Source of the DNA: Shigella phage ESh24
Direction: 5' to 3' (one strand)
DNA: 64,000 nucleotides
Sequence record: ON528734
The position numbers and the translations under genes were made by a program. A model generated the notes under the pieces. That model was not told the DNA's origin, made no database searches, and saw only the letters and a program-made list of their open reading frames with translations. Positions 728 to 9,150 of the stretch are shown here, one piece after another; the first letter of the stretch is position 1, and each line of letters begins with the position of its first letter.

Positions 728-897
728 ATAGTTTTGAGTTACAATACGAAGTGTTACGTGAGCTTGATAATTTAATTGAACTCGCTGTTAATAAAGGTTT
801 TGCCATTGGAATCGGTCAAAAAGATACTGGTCATTTAACTATGGAAATATTTAAGCAAAAGCGAATTATTTTAAAACTCCTGGAAATTAATATATGA
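724..897 (+). CDS. hypothetical protein (57 aa)
   Basis: ATGA overlap with upstream ORF; not in ORF track because <60 aa. Confidence 0.4.
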   Translation: MNSFELQYEVLRELDNLIELAVNKGFAIGIGQKDTGHLTMEIFKQKRIILKLLEINI

Positions 898-1079
898 GTC
901 TGAGTAAAGAACAAAAAGATAAATTGTTTGAGCTTATTCATGAACTTCTAGATGAGCATATAGAAGCAAACACCTTTTATGATGAATACGGCCCGCTATC
1001 TCCAGAACAGCAGGAAGAATTTGCTGATCGGTTTGATAAGAAAGAAAACGAATTAATAGCTTATGTGAATACGCTTTAA
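894..1079 (+). CDS. hypothetical acidic small protein (61 aa)
   Basis: ORF with overlapping start; immediately upstream of tk. Confidence 0.5.
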   Translation: MSLSKEQKDKLFELIHELLDEHIEANTFYDEYGPLSPEQQEEFADRFDKKENELIAYVNTL

Positions 1080-1937: not shown

Positions 1938-2231
1938 ATGGCCTTAAAAGCAACGGCACTATTTGCCATGCTAGGATTGTCATTTGTTTTATCTCCACCA
2001 ATTGAAGCGAATGTCGATCCTCATTTTGATAAATTTATGGAATCTGGTATTAGGCACGTTTATATGCTTTTTGAAAATAAAAGCGTAGAATCGTCTGAAC
2101 AATTCTATAGTTTTATGAGAACGACCTATAAAAATGACCCGTGCTCTTCTGATTTTGAATGTATAGAACGAGGCGCGGAGATGGCACAATCATACGCTAG
2201 AATTATGAACATTAAATTGGAGACTGAATGA
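1938..2231 (+). CDS. rI: lysis inhibition regulator rI (membrane/periplasmic)
   Basis: 97 aa, N-terminal signal-anchor MALKATALFAMLGLSFVLSPP; size and position as T4 rI. Confidence 0.85.
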   Translation: MALKATALFAMLGLSFVLSPPIEANVDPHFDKFMESGIRHVYMLFENKSVESSEQFYSFMRTTYKNDPCSSDFECIERGAEMAQSYARIMNIKLETE

Positions 2232-2614
2232 AATTCAGCGACTTTTCACAAAGTGGAAAACCTTCAAAGGCAGATGAATACTTAGGTTTATTAATGGCTG
2301 CACAAGCTTATTTTCATTCTGCACATTTTGAAACTAAAAGTTATGCTAGACACAAAGCATACGATTTTATTTTTTCTGAGTTACCAGATTTGATTGACAA
2401 ATTTGGTGAGCAATATTTGGGGTACTCTGGTAGAAAATACACACCTTCAATTCCAGATGCCAGTAAACTTCCTACCGACACAATTAAAATGATTGATCGC
2501 ATACTAGACCAATCTGACAGCATTTATAAAGAAATGCCTCCAGCCATCCAAAGCACGATAGATGATATTACTGGAATGTTTTACCAGAGTAAGTATCTTC
2601 TTTCCCTCGAATAA
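2228..2614 (+). CDS. hypothetical protein (128 aa), rI.1 position
   Basis: ATGA overlap with rI; followed by terminator. Confidence 0.6.
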
Positions 2615-2618
2615 CATT

Positions 2619-2642
2619 AGTCTCCTTCGGGAGACTTTTTTC
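2619..2642 (+). terminator. rho-independent terminator (GTCTCC-UUCG-GGAGAC + T run)
   Basis: Perfect 6-bp stem, UUCG tetraloop, T6 tract. Confidence 0.8.
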
Positions 2643-2651
2643 ATTTTACCG

Positions 2652-2683
2652 GTTTACTTTTCGTTTGAGCCGTGGTACTATAC
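2652..2683 (+). promoter_or_regulatory. T4-type early promoter
   Basis: GTTTAC (2652-2657), 18-nt spacer, TGGTACTATACAA extended -10. Confidence 0.7.
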
Positions 2684-2709
2684 AACCATCGGATAAAGAG
2701 GAGAACATC

Positions 2710-2898
2710 ATGAAAATTGAAGCACTCAATCAAGAAGGAAATATTTACGTCATCATTAATGGTGATTTTTTCGTCGACATGGATGAAGTTACTAGTGAAG
2801 AACTTGTAGAACTTCTTAAGAAACGTTATAATATGTGTGATGAAGTTGCAACTCACATGGCGTGTGCAATATTCTCTCTTTCATATGTGGTGGAATAA
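2710..2898 (+). CDS. hypothetical protein (62 aa)
   Basis: AGAGGAG RBS then ATG at 2710; ORF-track start 2665 lies inside the promoter. Confidence 0.5.
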
Positions 2899-3101
2899 TG
2901 ATTAGTATAGAGCAAGCAGATAAAATCAAGGAATTAGTGGCTTCAATTCGTAAAGCAGATGAGGAACTTAGTGACTTTGCTTGGTTTTCGTCAGGCATTG
3001 CAAATAAAGGTATTGATGAACTTGAAACTAAAGTTGATAATGCTTTAGAAGCGTTAGATATGTTTCTTGATGAAATTATCGATCATAATACGAGAGTTTA
3101 A
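2898..3101 (+). CDS. hypothetical protein (67 aa)
   Basis: TAATG overlap with upstream ORF. Confidence 0.5.
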   Translation: MISIEQADKIKELVASIRKADEELSDFAWFSSGIANKGIDELETKVDNALEALDMFLDEIIDHNTRV

Positions 3102-3103
3102 GT

Positions 3104-3298
3104 ATGCTAACACGCGAACAGTTTGAAAAAATCATTAAATTAGCACGTGATATTGAAATAGATTCATACCAATTAGCAGTTGAGCATTGTGAAGGATATT
3201 CATACGACGGTATAGAAACAGCTAAAAAGGATTTGGATAAATCTAAAGCTAAGTTAGTTCAATATCTTGAAATGATTAGGTGGAATAATGAAAACTGA
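3104..3298 (+). CDS. hypothetical protein (64 aa)
   Basis: ORF in tightly packed array. Confidence 0.5.
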   Translation: MLTREQFEKIIKLARDIEIDSYQLAVEHCEGYSYDGIETAKKDLDKSKAKLVQYLEMIRWNNEN

Positions 3299-3461
3299 AA
3301 AGCAGATGCTTTTAATGAAACTAATTGAAGAATATGCTAACGCAGTTTCTGACTATGAATGTTCTTCTCGGGAAAGAGGTACAGCTTTCGCCAAAGAAGA
3401 AATGAAAATCATGGTTGATGCTCATACAAAGCTTCAAAATTTTATTGAAAACGTCATTTAA
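3288..3461 (+). CDS. hypothetical protein (57 aa)
   Basis: ORF overlapping upstream stop; <60 aa so absent from track. Confidence 0.4.
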   Translation: MKTEKQMLLMKLIEEYANAVSDYECSSRERGTAFAKEEMKIMVDAHTKLQNFIENVI

Positions 3462-3463
3462 TG

Positions 3464-3495
3464 GTTTACAAGTTGGCAAGGTTATGGTATAGTAA
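3464..3495 (+). promoter_or_regulatory. T4-type early promoter
   Basis: GTTTAC (3464-3469) and TGGTATAGT -10. Confidence 0.65.
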
Positions 3496-3625
3496 TCTTG
3501 TCAACTGTTAAGGAGAAGAGAATGAAAGTTTTGTTTGTTGTGTATGTAATGATTCAATATAATCACCCAATGTTTACTTATAATCTGGTGAACAACATTA
3601 TTGATATTATTCAAAGGAGTATGTA

Positions 3626-3811
3626 ATGACAAGTGAGCAGGCTTTTAAATTAAGAGAATTAATTGAGACGTATAGTAAAGCTGTTCATACATCAACAATT
3701 ATTGATGAATCAGCTTTCTCCGGACATGCCAACAAGATTAAATACAAAACTCTTATGGAAGAAGCTAAAGTAAATCTTGATTCTTATATTGAAACTTTAA
3801 TTGGTGAATAA
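3626..3811 (+). CDS. hypothetical protein (61 aa)
   Basis: AGGAG RBS; ORF. Confidence 0.5.
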   Translation: MTSEQAFKLRELIETYSKAVHTSTIIDESAFSGHANKIKYKTLMEEAKVNLDSYIETLIGE

Positions 3812-3812
3812 C

Positions 3813-4079
3813 ATGGGCTTTCCTAAATTAGAAGTAGGTGATTTGGTCTTAACAAAATTATGGAATGATGTTCAATCAGTAGAAATCTGTCAATATCGTG
3901 GAGCAACAGGTAATTTGATGTACACGATTTATAATCCAGAAATTTTATTAGAGTGTCATTTGGAACGCTTTATAAAAGACACCGATAGTATGCCGTATAG
4001 TGTATCGATTGTACGTAAATCTGATACAAAGGAATACTCTAAAATTTTAGAACAAATCAGCGCAAATAAAAAGGATTAA
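3813..4079 (+). CDS. hypothetical protein (88 aa)
   Basis: ORF starting MGFPKLEV just after upstream stop. Confidence 0.5.
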   Translation: MGFPKLEVGDLVLTKLWNDVQSVEICQYRGATGNLMYTIYNPEILLECHLERFIKDTDSMPYSVSIVRKSDTKEYSKILEQISANKKD

Positions 4080-4080
4080 T

Positions 4081-4614
4081 ATGAAACGATTAGTATTAGA
4101 AGTTAGTCCACTTTTTGGTGAATTGGCTATAGAAAAAGTAAATAATATGTATCGTTTGACACAAGAAGACGATATGATGTATTTTACACCTAGTGAAATT
4201 ATTCATTTAACCCAAATTGAATATCCTTATACTGATAAAATAATAAGCATCAATGATGAGCACAAAATTCATTTTTATTCTTCATGCCCAGGATTTAATA
4301 TTAAAAGTGAGTCAATGTGTTTATCAGTTATCCATTGGGATAGTTTTATAGCCAAGATTAAATATTTTTATTATTCTAATGAAAGAAAACATAGTTTAAA
4401 ATGGCTCAAAAATTGTAATGCTATTATTACTAACGCTTGCAATCAGAATGATGAAACTCTTTTAAATGTATCAAAATGTTATGAAGAGGGAGATGTCTTA
4501 ACTATTCGTCAAATTGACGATTTTCGATCGCATATTGTCACATTTACCAAAGACGAAGCTATTGCACTAAAAGCTTATCTTGATTCTGTTATTCCAACTA
4601 TGATTTCAAAGTGA
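4081..4614 (+). CDS. hypothetical protein (177 aa), paralog of next gene
   Basis: C-terminal FTKDEAIALKAYLDSVIPTMISK matches LSKSEAEAMIKYLTTVTPSMKG of neighbour. Confidence 0.6.
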   Translation: MKRLVLEVSPLFGELAIEKVNNMYRLTQEDDMMYFTPSEIIHLTQIEYPYTDKIISINDEHKIHFYSSCPGFNIKSESMCLSVIHWDSFIAKIKYFYYSNERKHSLKWLKNCNAIITNACNQNDETLLNVSKCYEEGDVLTIRQIDDFRSHIVTFTKDEAIALKAYLDSVIPTMISK

Positions 4615-4620
4615 GGAAAT

Positions 4621-5142
4621 ATGTTTATTTCAAGTGAAAGTGGTTTAATTCGTGCTGAATTTAAAAATGACATCTTTCTTATTCAAGGAGATGATATTAT
4701 TAAAATGAGTTATGACGAAATCAAGAAAATTTGTCATGCTCTTGAAAGTCATGGAAAAGTGAACGCTGTTATTGATATTGGCGATTTATGGGTGACACTT
4801 TATGAAGTATCCGAAGGATTTAACATTGAAGATGAAAATAACATTTTAGCTATTGATAAAAGAAGTGATTTGTTTGATGTATTAAAAGTTTATGAACAGT
4901 CAAATGGCGGAAGAAAAGCTGTATTGATTTATCAAAAACCGCATTCATGTGGAACTGCTTCAATCATTTCAAATATTGAAGATGAAACTGATACTTATAT
5001 GTGTGTTTTAAAAGCTGGTGGTGACCGTCATCCGGATTTTATTTCTATTCGTCAAAACAATGGAGAAATTTCATTATCAAAATCAGAAGCTGAAGCGATG
5101 ATTAAGTATTTAACAACCGTTACGCCTTCAATGAAAGGATAA
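4621..5142 (+). CDS. hypothetical protein (173 aa), paralog of previous gene
   Basis: Shared C-terminal motif with 4081-4614. Confidence 0.6.
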   Translation: MFISSESGLIRAEFKNDIFLIQGDDIIKMSYDEIKKICHALESHGKVNAVIDIGDLWVTLYEVSEGFNIEDENNILAIDKRSDLFDVLKVYEQSNGGRKAVLIYQKPHSCGTASIISNIEDETDTYMCVLKAGGDRHPDFISIRQNNGEISLSKSEAEAMIKYLTTVTPSMKG

Positions 5143-5144
5143 TT

Positions 5145-5606
5145 ATGATTATTAATGAAAACTCTTGGCACTATAAATTATTCAAATTGTTTAACGATGA
5201 ATGGCAACGACCTAAGACACTATGTGCATACTTTTGGTCTATTGTTATCCCTACATTTTTCGTTTCTATTTTTGGGTGTACTATACTCGTAGGGCTAACA
5301 ATTATTTGTGCAGAAAGCCTACAACGTTGGCTTATTTTCGGTAGTTTATGGACTCTTCTTCCATTAGCATTTATACTTGCGCTTTTGGTTGTTTTACTTA
5401 TTATCGGTTCATTTGTTATTCCTGCACATTTGCGTGAAAAATATAAAGATTATAAATGGAAAAAGGATTATGCTTTACACGTAGAAAATATTGATAGGGC
5501 GTATAAAGGTTTACCTCCTATTCAACCCAAGAAATCTATTATCGTCGAATTTTTAAAAGCTCGTAAAGCTAAAGTATGTCCTGTTATTGAATATAAGGCT
5601 GAATGA
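5145..5606 (+). CDS. predicted integral membrane protein (153 aa)
   Basis: Three hydrophobic segments; ATGA-coupled to downstream NTase gene. Confidence 0.6.
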   Translation: MIINENSWHYKLFKLFNDEWQRPKTLCAYFWSIVIPTFFVSIFGCTILVGLTIICAESLQRWLIFGSLWTLLPLAFILALLVVLLIIGSFVIPAHLREKYKDYKWKKDYALHVENIDRAYKGLPPIQPKKSIIVEFLKARKAKVCPVIEYKAE

Positions 5607-6616
5607 TGAAAACAGTAATGAAAAGCTATTTTGGTAGTCATCTTTATGGAACTTCTACCCCAGAATCTGATGTAGATTTTAAAGAAATTTTTGTTCCTCC
5701 TGCTCGCGATATTCTTATCGGAAATGTTAAAGAGCATATGAGCAAAAACACTAACAACACATCATCTAAAAACACTAAAGATGATATTGACCATGAACTA
5801 TACAGTCTTAAGTATTTCTTTAAATTAGCAGCAGATGGTGAAACCGTAGCATTGGATATGCTTCACACTCCACCTGAACTAGTGGTTAAATCTGATTTGC
5901 CTGATGTGTGGAAGTTTATTCAAGACAACCGTTCTCGTTTTTATACGACTAACATGAAATCCTATTTAGGATATGTTCGCAAGCAAGCTTCTAAATACGG
6001 TGTCAAGGGTTCTCGTTTGGCTGCATTACGCGATGTATTGAAAGTAGTTAATCAAATCCCTGAGCAATGGGTTGATTACCAAGAAGATGGTTCTATTAAG
6101 CAGCGTCGTACTAAAGTTGAAGATATTAAGCATCGTCTTCCAGAAAACGAATTCTGTGAATGGGTGTTCCATAATCATGAGAAAACAGGTCCACAAACGT
6201 TCTATACTGTATTGGGTCGTAAATATCAGACAACTCTTTCTCTTATTGAGCTTAAGCAGTCACTGAACAAATTAGATGCTGAATATGGTGAACGTGCTCG
6301 TAAGGCCGAAGCCAATGAAGGTATTGACTGGAAAGCACTAAGTCATGCTTGTCGTGGTGGACTTCAACTATTGGAAATTTACAAAACTGGCGACTTAGTT
6401 TATCCACTCAAAGATGCTCCTTTTATTCTCGACGTGAAGTTGGGTAAGCATCCATTTAAAACGGTTCAAGAGTTTTTGGAAGATGTGGTCGATCAAGTAG
6501 AAGCAGCATCTACTGAAGCTTCTAAGAACGGTATGCAACAAAAAGTAGACATGAGTTTCTGGGATGACTTCCTTGAGAAGGTCTATCTTGAAAACCACCG
6601 AAATTATTATAAATGA
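5603..6616 (+). CDS. predicted Pol-beta-superfamily nucleotidyltransferase-fold protein (337 aa); nrdC.11 position
   Basis: Motif FGSHLYGTSTPESDVDF = hG[GS]-x(10)-D-h-D NTase signature; later hhDhh (VALDMLH). Confidence 0.65.
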   Translation: MMKTVMKSYFGSHLYGTSTPESDVDFKEIFVPPARDILIGNVKEHMSKNTNNTSSKNTKDDIDHELYSLKYFFKLAADGETVALDMLHTPPELVVKSDLPDVWKFIQDNRSRFYTTNMKSYLGYVRKQASKYGVKGSRLAALRDVLKVVNQIPEQWVDYQEDGSIKQRRTKVEDIKHRLPENEFCEWVFHNHEKTGPQTFYTVLGRKYQTTLSLIELKQSLNKLDAEYGERARKAEANEGIDWKALSHACRGGLQLLEIYKTGDLVYPLKDAPFILDVKLGKHPFKTVQEFLEDVVDQVEAASTEASKNGMQQKVDMSFWDDFLEKVYLENHRNYYK

Positions 6617-6618
6617 TA

Positions 6619-6643
6619 GGGAGCCTTCGGGCTCCCTTTTTTA
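6619..6643 (+). terminator. rho-independent terminator (GGGAGCC-UUCG-GGCTCCC + T run)
   Basis: 7-bp GC stem, UUCG loop, T6 tract. Confidence 0.85.
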
Positions 6644-6666
6644 TTTCAAAAATTTTTCACAAAGTT

Positions 6667-6698
6667 GTTTACAAGCATAAAGCTTTATGGTACTATAC
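6667..6698 (+). promoter_or_regulatory. T4-type early promoter with conserved leader cassette
   Basis: GTTTAC, TGGTACTATACAACTATCAACT core; A-rich upstream element. Confidence 0.75.
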
Positions 6699-6730
6699 AA
6701 CTATCAACTGATACGGATTTGGAGAATAAA

Positions 6731-7699
6731 ATGAAAACTGTAACTATCAATAAGGGTATCTACTTTGGCAAAGAAATCTCTGGAACTTTTGAACTCTTAG
6801 GTGAATGGTTCCCAGATAATGCTCCAGTAGATGCACAAGGAGATGGTAAAGTTTTTGTTGAAATTGACGGTAAACGTCGCGGTGTTTGGGTTTACAAATC
6901 AGACATTTCATATGATGGTGTAAAAGTTGAAGAAGTTAAAGAATCGTATGAAGATATGAAAACCCGCATTAATAAAAGATTTAATGTTATGGGAATGATG
7001 ACGAATGGTATTATTAACGGAAACATTCGTTCATTAATTATCTCTGGTGCGGCGGGTATTGGTAAAACGTATTCTTTAGATAAAGCTTTAAATAAAGCAA
7101 ATGATATTGGATACATTGAATATAAAAGCATTAACGGTAAAATCTCTGGTATCGGTCTTTATGAACAGCTTTGGAATAATCGTGAAGAGAATTCTGTCCT
7201 TTTGATTGATGATGTGGATGTTTTCTCTGATATGGACATTCTTAATCTTCTGAAAGCTGCTCTGGACACCGGAGAGACCCGTAAAGTCTGCTGGAGCACC
7301 GCATCTTCTTACTTAGAAGAAAAAGGCATTGAGCGTGAGTTTGAATTTAAAGGAACGATTGTTTTTATCACAAACGTTGACATTGACCGCGAATTAGACC
7401 GTGGTACTAAACTTGCTCCACATTTACAAGCATTAGTGTCCCGCTCAGTTTATTTGGATTTGGGTGTTCACACTAATGAAGAAATTATGGTCAGGGTTGA
7501 AGATGTTATTCTTTCAACTGACATGATGCAAAAGCGCGGTCTTTCTGATGAAGAAACTTATAAAGCATTATCATGGATGAAAGTCAATGTTAATCGTTTA
7601 CGCAATGTTTCACTGCGTACTGCACTTTATCTTGCTGACTTTATTATGACCGACAAAAATGGTTGGGAAGAAATTGCTGAGGTTACTCTTCTGAAATAA
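6731..7699 (+). CDS. predicted P-loop ATPase (AAA-like), 322 aa; nrdC.10 position
   Basis: Walker A GAAGIGKT, Walker B VLLIDDVD; ORF-track N-extension is leader, real start after GGAG RBS. Confidence 0.7.
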   Translation: MKTVTINKGIYFGKEISGTFELLGEWFPDNAPVDAQGDGKVFVEIDGKRRGVWVYKSDISYDGVKVEEVKESYEDMKTRINKRFNVMGMMTNGIINGNIRSLIISGAAGIGKTYSLDKALNKANDIGYIEYKSINGKISGIGLYEQLWNNREENSVLLIDDVDVFSDMDILNLLKAALDTGETRKVCWSTASSYLEEKGIEREFEFKGTIVFITNVDIDRELDRGTKLAPHLQALVSRSVYLDLGVHTNEEIMVRVEDVILSTDMMQKRGLSDEETYKALSWMKVNVNRLRNVSLRTALYLADFIMTDKNGWEEIAEVTLLK

Positions 7700-7797
7700 T
7701 TCATAAGAGGCCTTCTAAGATAAAAAGGCAGTTCAGAAATAGATTATATGGACTGCCATTAAAAAGATGACTAGAATTAAACTGGTAAATGGAGGTA

Positions 7798-8103
7798 ATG
7801 ATGTTATACTCAAAGGCTCGTGAAATTTACGAAACTAAAATTAAAGAAGCAGTATTTCAGTTCGCAACAACGATGCGATGGACAAATGATTGGGAATATT
7901 CAAAAAATCATAAGAAGCCCATGGTGACAAGAAAGGCTCATGTGTTAGTGTTAATAGACCGTGAGCAGATTAAAGCCCGAGAAGCCCTCCAGAATCATAA
8001 AAAGGCTGCCTTTGAATGGTTTATGGATAACACTGCTCCTGAGACTAAGAAAGCAGTGAGCGCTTGGTTCAGTGGAAAAAATTGTGAAAGAAGTTTCTTT
8101 TAG
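7798..8103 (+). CDS. hypothetical protein (~101 aa)
   Basis: GGAGG RBS 7791-7795; tandem ATGs at 7798/7801. Confidence 0.5.
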   Translation: MMLYSKAREIYETKIKEAVFQFATTMRWTNDWEYSKNHKKPMVTRKAHVLVLIDREQIKAREALQNHKKAAFEWFMDNTAPETKKAVSAWFSGKNCERSFF

Positions 8104-8105
8104 TT

Positions 8106-8137
8106 GTTTACAAGACAGTTCCTCTGTGGTACTATAC
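8106..8137 (+). promoter_or_regulatory. T4-type early promoter with conserved leader cassette
   Basis: GTTTAC, TGGTACTATACAACTATCAACTAC, GGAGGA RBS. Confidence 0.75.
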
Positions 8138-8163
8138 AACTATCAACTACGGAGGAACAGAAA

Positions 8164-8691
8164 ATGAATGCTAAAGATATTTTCAACTTGGTAAACTACA
8201 ATGATGGTAAATTTAAATCTGAAGCTCAAAGCAAGTTTTTTAATGATGTCTCAATCGGTGGTGAAATCACGGTTGATGGAGGACAAGTTTATAAATCTCG
8301 TTGGAATTGGATCGTTATTATCGATGAGATTGGTATTGTAGAAATTTACAAGAATACGAATAAAAATCGTACATTACACTGGTCTCGTGATACTAACGAA
8401 CAGTACAAAAAGGATAAAGCATCTAAATTATCTCGTGTAACTCAAGAAGATATTGAGTTCATCAAAAAGGATATTTTGATGTATGATAACTTAATTGCTG
8501 AAGAGCAAGCTGTTATTGATAAATTTGACGAGATTAAAGCTTCTCGTGAAATTCCTGATTTTATGAAAGAATCAGTAAATGAACGATACACTCTCATTTC
8601 AGAGCGTATTGAAACTTACAAAAAGCAAAGAGCTGAACGCCAGAACACTCTTCGGAAATTTGAAGAACGGTTAAAGACGGTACTCGCATAA
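8164..8691 (+). CDS. hypothetical protein (175 aa)
   Basis: Start after conserved leader; C-terminal charged helical region. Confidence 0.6.
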   Translation: MNAKDIFNLVNYNDGKFKSEAQSKFFNDVSIGGEITVDGGQVYKSRWNWIVIIDEIGIVEIYKNTNKNRTLHWSRDTNEQYKKDKASKLSRVTQEDIEFIKKDILMYDNLIAEEQAVIDKFDEIKASREIPDFMKESVNERYTLISERIETYKKQRAERQNTLRKFEERLKTVLA

Positions 8692-8715
8692 CCGCTTTAT
8701 ACCAAGGATGGTATA

Positions 8716-9150
8716 ATGGTTCTAAGCCCTTTAATTGAGAATATGAATATGAAACAGTTAATAATTAAAAGATTGAATTTATTGATATGTTGTTTATGTG
8801 TAATAGTTGCATATGGTTATTACGCAATTAATGATTATATGCATTATAAAGATTATGATGTTACTGTAGTTAATACCCTTACAGGAACTCAAGGAAAGGG
8901 ATCTAGTTTATCGTTTATTGCCGTATATGAACTCAAAGACGGTTATAGATTTAGTGAATATATTTCCCCAGAGATGTATTCATCAATAGAAAAAGGCGAT
9001 AATATTACTGTAAGTTTACGTCCTTTTGACGTAAAACAGACATGGTTTGATAATATTATTTGGTTCTTTGGAATGGCATTAGTTCAATCTATATGTGGTA
9101 CTTATATAGTATGTTCAATCTTATTCCGCATAATTGATAAAATTGAGTGA
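8716..9150 (+). CDS. predicted membrane protein (144 aa)
   Basis: N- and C-terminal hydrophobic segments. Confidence 0.5.
   Translation: MVLSPLIENMNMKQLIIKRLNLLICCLCVIVAYGYYAINDYMHYKDYDVTVVNTLTGTQGKGSSLSFIAVYELKDGYRFSEYISPEMYSSIEKGDNITVSLRPFDVKQTWFDNIIWFFGMALVQSICGTYIVCSILFRIIDKIE

Follow-up and report, generated by a model that had tools for sequence, protein, structure and literature searches.

The two plus-strand open reading frames present at positions 4081-4614 (ORF A, 177 aa) and 4621-5142 (ORF B, 173 aa) of the 64-kb stretch of phage DNA under study (taken at its full length and referred to as the window) are genuine full-length paralogs standing as tandem duplicates, and they almost certainly belong to the MobD.1/Y05I protein family. 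They lie in a run of genes that is probably transcribed as a single operon, and it is tentatively proposed that they act as soluble, non-essential, early protein-binding adaptors tied to the membrane protein encoded immediately downstream. For the package as a whole (family identity, single operon and adaptor mechanism), a probability of approximately 0.55 is estimated.

The window belongs to a Tequatrovirus (T4-like phage), the region having many matches at 96-98% identity among Tequatrovirus phages of Escherichia, Shigella and Yersinia. Its counterpart in T4 is the tk-rI-mobD.x-nrdC.11-nrdC.10 segment, and the AAA protein NrdC.10 was also recognized among the neighbours of ORF A and ORF B from Pfam/PHROG matches. 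A HMM built from the family detected no third MobD.1-family copy across the 64 kb besides ORF A and ORF B, and a Rfam search of positions 2000-9000 gave no credible match. The features of the transcription unit are the following:

3465-3493, plus strand: T4-type early promoter, GTTTACA-17 nt-TGGTATAGT, which would head the transcription unit
3522-3626, plus strand: 34-aa ORF, homolog of T4 mobD.2 (from sequence reading and blastn collinearity with T4 mobD.2)
3626-3811, plus strand: 61-aa DUF7438 paralog (PF24219, E=1.4e-15)
3813-4079, plus strand: Phage_tudor domain protein, 88 aa from ATG (PF24144, E=9.5e-40), absent from T4
4081-4614, plus strand: ORF A, 177 aa, ortholog of T4 MobD.1 (Y05I), with T4_y05I_N and T4_y05I_C domains
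4450-4458, plus strand: GATGAAACT microhomology in ORF A, crossover point of natural A/B hybrids
4621-5142, plus strand: ORF B, 173 aa, tandem paralog of ORF A, with T4_y05I_N and T4_y05I_C domains, absent from T4
4981-4989, plus strand: GATGAAACT microhomology in ORF B, partner of that at 4450-4458
5145-5606, plus strand: small membrane protein, 153 aa (phrog_944); T4 has mobD instead
5603-6616, plus strand: RlaP-family Pol-beta nucleotidyltransferase (NTase), ortholog of T4 NrdC.11 (PF10127, E=1.9e-11; phrog_388, E=1.5e-136)
6618-6637, plus strand: intrinsic terminator, 8-bp GC-rich stem plus T run, which would end the transcription unit

In the initial annotation, tight packing of the pair with the genes for the membrane protein and the NTase had been taken to suggest one operon. 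The packing is borne out by the gene junctions (4079/4081, 4614/4621, 5142/5145 and a 4-nt overlap at 5603-5606), with gaps of a few bases at most along the whole mobD.2, DUF7438, Tudor, A, B, membrane protein, NTase order; the Tudor gene is also annotated, at 267 nt, in phage PYPS2T. The operon is, in turn, supported by sequence signals. T4-type early promoters (GTTTAC...TGGTAnnnT) were found at 2653, 3465, 6668 and 8107, and strong intrinsic terminators at 2619-2636 and 6618-6637, the latter directly 3' of the NTase gene and followed by the next early promoter at 6668. The promoter at 3465-3493 is the top sigma-70-like match in the region (10/12, with an extended -10 TG), and co-transcription from this promoter to the terminator at 6618-6637 appears probable. 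The candidate for a MotA-box middle promoter, at 3967, is no more than a pattern match.

Early expression of the pair is suggested by the early-type promoter at 3465-3493 and by the behaviour of the T4 ortholog: early RNA and early protein have been reported for T4 mobD.1 and mobD, early RNA and middle protein for nrdC.11, and Y05I peptides have been quantified in T4 (PMC9697503, supplements). A viable genome-reduced T4 had lost the nrdC.11-mobD.3 segment (PMC9825161). From the early MobD.1 products of T4 and the possibility to delete the nrdC.11-mobD.3 segment, it follows that the family is expressed and dispensable in the laboratory.

The pair had been described as tandem paralogs from a C-terminal block common to both proteins (their final 22-23 residues), with the caveat that a full-length alignment might restrict the similarity to a chance short motif. 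Such an alignment rules this out. By BLASTP, residues 8-174 of ORF A align with residues 3-171 of ORF B with 27% identity, 48% positives and E=3e-8. The significance of the relation was also evaluated by comparing Smith-Waterman scores with those of 2000 shuffles, yielding z=12.2 for the full-length proteins, z=8.3 for the C-terminal block alone, z=6.6 for the N-terminal domains alone and z=7.4 when the last 25 residues were omitted. In each of the four tests, none of the 2000 shuffles equalled the observed score. The similarity therefore extends beyond the C-terminal block and is not a short chance motif. In the family alignment, ORF B forms a separate deep branch and is 25% identical to ORF A.

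Assignment to the MobD.1/Y05I family (Y05I being the UniProt name of T4 MobD.1; Y05I_BPT4, P39240) is based on both domains. Scores for PF24449 (T4_y05I_N; gathering score, 24.9) were 133.1 bits for ORF A and 115.9 bits for ORF B, and those for PF24448 (T4_y05I_C; gathering score, 27) were 74.4 and 82.9 bits, respectively; PHROG 1502 was matched over the entire length of both (ORF A, E=5e-80; ORF B, E=9e-67). ORF A and T4 MobD.1 share 85% amino-acid identity and the genomic slot, T4 mobD.1 being collinear with positions 4083-4639 of the window, so that ORF A is the ortholog, whereas ORF B is a paralog with no T4 counterpart. ORF B does share the two-domain architecture of T4 MobD.1, and all of them are early genes of the tk-nrdC region, but it is only 25-27% identical to ORF A and its slot is occupied in T4 by the mobD HNH cassette. 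Pfam, PHROGs and UniProt already contain entries for the family with its two domains and for the T4 ortholog, and the A/B gene pair itself is present in hundreds of GenBank records, so that the arrangement as such is known. There, owing to gene-name confusion, the A and B genes are often mislabelled as 'molybdopterin-guanine dinucleotide biosynthesis protein MobD' or 'thioredoxin'. In the literature, no functional study was found of MobD.1/Y05I, of the Phage_tudor domain or of these Pfam accessions. NCBIfam gave no match for either ORF, nor did PADLOC, the library of which covers defence rather than anti-defence proteins.

When 1.84 billion representative proteins were searched with a profile, only 29 MobD.1/Y05I-family clusters were retrieved at E<=0.001. 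Full-length members (173-196 aa) account for a few of them, and stand-alone C-terminal domains (67-87 aa) for about a dozen. All genomic contexts examined were T4-like, and the family is considered to be confined to T4-like (Tevenvirinae) phages. The stand-alone y05I_C proteins (PHROG 7763/10804), such as gp109 of Yersinia phage TG1 and gp200 of Klebsiella phage kv_tblp8, contain the same C-terminal domain with the ...TKxEAxAL..YL.SVIPTM signature and are encoded at the same position, immediately 5' of the membrane-protein gene. Other lineages encode small proteins of the DUF7189 family (PF23819) just 5' of their y05I genes. Both types are single-module proteins of 54-87 aa, unlike ORF A and ORF B, which consist of two such modules plus an inserted beta4-alpha unit.

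The modular construction emerged from profile-profile comparison with hhalign, in which N-domain residues approximately 14-46 matched the core of the C domain with 90% probability (E=1.6e-6; score, 32.5, compared with a maximum of 11.9 for the reversed and 30 column-shuffled controls). Both aligned segments are beta-beta-beta-alpha units in the ORF B model from AF2, indicating that A and B each hold two copies of this module, one per domain. DUF7189 proteins match the repeated module weakly (E of about 1e-4 to 1e-5 against ten sequences). A DNA match of 36 nt (75%) notwithstanding, the C-terminus of DUF7438 is not a convincing homolog of the y05I C-terminal helix (probability, 8.5%). Structure prediction, which had been recommended as a check on the pair, was successful for one of the two proteins: the ORF B model, obtained with a 28-sequence alignment, is usable (mean pLDDT, 81.5, with the N domain above 90), that of ORF A, obtained with a 15-sequence alignment, is not (pLDDT, 53). 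In the ORF B model, the N domain is formed by a beta-beta-beta-alpha unit followed by beta4-alpha, and the C domain by five strands and a C-terminal helix.

A sequence-profile search of the PDB gave nothing credible (top match TRAP1, E=0.65), and with Foldseek the ORF B model had no PDB match at E<=0.001. The entries of highest probability were 2nvn (0.92; E=0.084; TM-scores, 0.32/0.41) and 2it9 (0.87; E=0.15), with TM-scores of 0.3-0.4 for the pair. Both are cyanobacterial proteins with function-less annotation, which we take to be two-repeat beta4-alpha proteins and, presumably, related to the PC4/Whirly-type fold. In topology, the N domain resembles their beta-rich repeats with the helices that follow, but the E values (0.08-0.15) and TM-scores are poor and there is no sequence similarity to A or B. 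Against BFVD, Foldseek retrieved the family itself and, beyond it, nothing but uncharacterised Bacillus-phage proteins. Acidity is common to every member of the family (pI 4.1-5.8): the net charge of the N domains ranges from -3 to -14, and none of the domains is consistently basic; PC4-type nucleic-acid binders are, instead, basic.

Comparison with T4 clarifies how the region differs between the two phages. The T4 match ends at position 3637 of the window and restarts at 4083. The intervening stretch (3638-4082) is missing in T4, which therefore lacks most of the 61-aa DUF7438 gene (only its first approx. 12 nt are retained) and the entire Tudor gene, both still present in the window phage. 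As a consequence of this deletion, the first four codons of T4 mobD.1, the start codon included ('MSEA-KRLV...'), are derived from the DUF7438 gene. The T4 match then covers positions 4083-4639, namely ORF A and the first 18 nt of ORF B, after which the mobD HNH homing-endonuclease cassette fills the space until homology restarts at 5602, at the beginning of nrdC.11, with 96% nucleotide identity from there onward. The breakpoints at 4639 and 5602 thus show that in T4 mobD replaces ORF B and the membrane-protein gene, the displaced sequence corresponding to 4640-5601 of the window. In a review of T4 mobile elements, the mobD site is given as 'nrdC.11/mobD.1' (PMC2988022). The window contains this same insertion site of a free-standing T4 homing endonuclease with no endonuclease in it, and reveals which genes were displaced in T4. 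In the phage collection, 433 records, T6 and RB68 among them, carry ORF B with an identity of >90%, and 728 carry an A-type gene, whereas the T4-type mobD arrangement was matched over most of its length in only 47. The arrangement of the window is therefore the common one and that of T4 is derived, and the window represents the ancestral, endonuclease-free state of the mobD insertion site.

The locus is plastic in other phages as well. In T2 both ORF A and ORF B are fragmented, in phage ADUt a 47%-identity allele occupies the A slot beside a 97% ORF B, and in Bas43 a deletion joins MobD.5 to the C-terminus of ORF B. At least six metagenomic contigs carry a single in-frame hybrid gene that combines the N domain of A with the C domain of B, the crossover being exactly at the 9-nt GATGAAACT microhomology; in one such hybrid (P0020, from loci L017/L018) the match to the window extends up to 4458 and resumes at 4981. 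The sequence at the junction points to a microhomology-mediated origin of the hybrid. Despite this plasticity, the dN/dS values (ORF A, 0.06-0.22; ORF B, 0.07-0.16; NTase, 0.03-0.04) indicate that intact copies of A and B are under purifying selection.

A y05I C-domain gene is found immediately upstream of the membrane-protein ortholog in every lineage examined, namely VR7 (Gaprivervirus), kv_tblp8, TG1 and loci L005, L006, L007 and L017. In kv_tblp8 the upstream gene encodes the C domain only, as in TG1, where the membrane protein is present and the NTase is absent from this position. These lineages include three metagenomic T4-like contigs, one with a B-type copy only and another with the most divergent member of the family, and the contigs with a hybrid gene likewise carry the C-domain gene directly 5' of the membrane gene. 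In an alignment of seven lineages, the membrane protein shows invariant SWH, LC.Y and K.C residues in both tails, which are net positive, and a variable hydrophobic core. Among the 97 clusters of the membrane-protein family, no Rosetta-stone fusion with a y05I domain was detected, and its distant homologs have neither a y05I neighbour nor a constant neighbour; one of them adjoins a Thg1-like RNA-repair polymerase and the others have unrelated neighbours. In L006 and kv_tblp8, extra genes separate the membrane gene from the NTase gene. The 173-175-aa proteins encoded between these two genes in other lineages were considered as hidden paralogs and rejected (hhalign probability, 0.3%).

On these grounds, a role of A and B as adaptors is possible, if doubtful when taken by itself. 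The conserved C-terminal domain, which carries the ...EAxAL..YL.SVIPTM helix and tail, would bind to the basic cytoplasmic tails of the membrane protein encoded downstream, leaving the more variable acidic N-terminal domain available to bind a host or phage target. Gene duplication, divergent alleles and natural N/C hybrids may then serve to widen the target range of the N domain. Against the proposal, it should be considered that broad collinearity and tight packing are general in T4-like genomes, which makes conserved adjacency and short spacers weak evidence of a functional link. Furthermore, T4 retains A but not the membrane protein, and in TG1 the C-domain gene and the membrane protein are retained but not the NTase, so that none of the partnerships among A, the membrane protein and the NTase is obligate. 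The label chosen by the Pfam curators, a putative transcription factor, also speaks for a different function.

Indeed, the Pfam names of the N- and C-terminal domains ('y05I-like putative transcription factor') would make A and B nucleic-acid-binding transcription factors, which use a PC4/Whirly-like or MotA double-wing-like beta-sheet to redirect early expression, with the two paralogs recognizing different sites. Early expression, the beta-rich/alpha repeat topology of the AF2 model with the 2nvn and 2it9 matches (0.92 and 0.87), and the presence of a DksA/TraR-type zinc finger protein and of the Tudor protein in the same gene cluster of related phages are in line with this explanation. However, it is unlikely, given the uniformly acidic character of the family, with no consistently basic domain, and the results of the searches: no helix-turn-helix or other DNA-binding Pfam family was found at E<=1, MotA-type domains were absent from the Pfam scan and from the top 50 structural matches, and the PDB returned neither a sequence match nor a Foldseek match at E<=0.001, with TM-scores of 0.3-0.4. 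The same acidity, together with early expression and dispensability in laboratory hosts, would suit acidic decoys or DNA mimics that neutralize a host restriction or defence protein, with an arms race driving duplication and allelic turnover. The highly divergent alleles in the A slot of otherwise near-identical phages (47% versus 97%) and the recurrent deletions, hybrids and pseudogenes at the locus could be so accounted for, but the dN/dS values of 0.06-0.22 are clearly below 1, with no whole-gene sign of positive selection. Since, moreover, neither a match to known anti-defence proteins (PADLOC, a defence-protein library, being blank for A and B) nor a structural match to known mimics (Foldseek against PDB and BFVD) was found, decoys are considered very unlikely.

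The NTase offers a different perspective, in which A and B would be accessory subunits of a membrane-associated module for RNA 3'-end repair or counter-defence, built around the RlaP protein NrdC.11 and the membrane protein, for example for restoring tRNAs that host anticodon nucleases have trimmed. Enzymes of the RlaP family, of which T4 NrdC.11 is a member, extend damaged RNA 3' ends by 1-2 nucleotides (PMC12776372), a biochemistry that fits such a module. The RlaP NTase (PF10127, 5603-6616) lies within the same promoter-terminator unit as A and B, Tequatrovirus, Gaprivervirus and a number of metagenomic T4-like lineages share the gene order y05I, membrane protein, RlaP NTase, and the distant membrane-protein homolog beside the Thg1-like polymerase, although a single case, goes in the same direction. 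The module is nevertheless quite improbable when the exceptions are taken into account: TG1 lacks the NTase at this position despite having the C-domain gene and the membrane protein, T4 lacks the membrane protein despite having A and the NTase, extra genes intervene between the membrane and NTase genes in L006 and kv_tblp8, and the remaining distant membrane-protein homologs have unrelated neighbours. Besides, RlaP occurs much more widely than y05I, a family of only 29 clusters, and co-occurrence of the two is not obligate. A more elaborate combination of this module with the adaptor mechanism has little chance of being correct: the y05I C-terminal domain would be a module dedicated to docking on the membrane protein, and these two and the RlaP NTase would make up a device of T-even phages, tethered to the membrane, for RNA-end repair or counter-defence, with the duplicated and recombining N-terminal domains of A and B as interchangeable target-recognition heads. 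If true, such a device would be previously unrecognised in T-even phages.

To what is catalogued for the family, the present analysis adds the identity of the genes displaced by T4 mobD (ORF B and the membrane gene) and the chimeric start of T4 mobD.1, the internal beta-beta-beta-alpha repeat with its weaker DUF7189 match, the A/B hybrid of apparently microhomology-mediated origin and the acidic nature of the family, which is at odds with the 'transcription factor' label. In practical terms, two 'hypothetical' genes in hundreds of T-even genomes become MobD.1-family paralogs, which is a matter of tidy annotation. As for their biology, genes that are early, selectively conserved in nature and dispensable in the laboratory have the profile typical of host-range or counter-defence genes, so that the MobD.1/Y05I family is a reasonable candidate for functional screens.

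In a natural hybrid gene, found in at least six contigs (at 2501-3040 in the L017 and L018 contigs), the N domain of ORF A, the T4 MobD.1/Y05I ortholog, is fused in frame to the C domain of its tandem paralog ORF B. The two paralogs share, at equivalent positions, a 9-nt identity (GATGAAACT; 4450-4458 in ORF A and 4981-4989 in ORF B), and the hybrid gene arose via recombination at this site.

Comparison with the T4 locus (L002) revealed that two segments of the window, 3638-4082 and 4640-5601, are missing from T4. Deletion of the former removed most of the DUF7438 gene along with the Tudor gene, joining the DUF7438 start codon to mobD.1, while the latter, which comprises ORF B and the membrane protein gene, is swapped for the cassette of the HNH homing endonuclease mobD, with only 18 nt of ORF B left as a remnant. 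In phage T2 (L003, 1940-3019), the homologs of ORF A and ORF B are each broken into several short annotated ORFs and look like pseudogenes; the membrane protein and NTase genes are both intact.

The set of DUF7438 (PF24219) genes is a second paralog expansion, adjoining that of ORF A and ORF B, with five small helical proteins (approx. 57-67 residues; E = 1e-15 to 3e-19) dispersed over the tk-mobD early region.

DUF7438 (PF24219) paralogs in the window
894-1079, DUF7438 paralog
2898-3101, DUF7438 paralog
3104-3298, DUF7438 paralog
3288-3461, DUF7438 paralog
3626-3811, DUF7438 paralog

The 3' end of the last of these genes (3767-3802, KVNLDSYIETLI) and that of ORF A (4570-4605, KAYLDSVIPTMI) match at the DNA level over 36 nt (75%), which is probably due to chance or to a common C-terminal helix motif, because profile comparison of the two yielded a probability of only 8.5%. 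GenBank and RefSeq records matching the region are systematically mislabelled owing to confusion of gene names, with mobD.x genes given as 'molybdopterin-guanine dinucleotide biosynthesis protein MobD', nrdC.x genes as 'thioredoxin' and one DUF7438 gene as 'helicase loader' or 'kilA'.

The ORFs at 6665 and 8104 are listed with TTG starts, which fall within near-identical early promoter/leader cassettes, corresponding to repeats D1, D4 and D5.

Early promoter/leader cassettes
6668-6696 (in the stretch 6665-6730), at the TTG start of the ORF at 6665
8107-8135 (in the stretch 8104-8170), at the TTG start of the ORF at 8104

For NrdC.10, the AAA protein encoded 3' of the NTase gene, residue 23 is the first to align with PHROG 1250, so that translation probably starts at the ATG at 6731 instead. 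A pattern match identified a MotA-box-like candidate middle promoter (3967-3998; cGCTTtA, approx. 12 nt, TAGTAT) within the Tudor gene, a short distance upstream of ORF A.

The small membrane protein (5145-5606) belongs to a family of at least 97 clusters from diverse phages, among which no constant neighbours were found; in one contig (L016) the gene of a family member adjoins that of a Thg1-like polymerase. In Tequatroviruses two alleles occur, of 153 and 157 residues and approx. 50% identical. The transmembrane core is hypervariable, and SWH, LC.Y and K.C are invariant in the N- and C-terminal tails, where these residues could make a metal or redox site.
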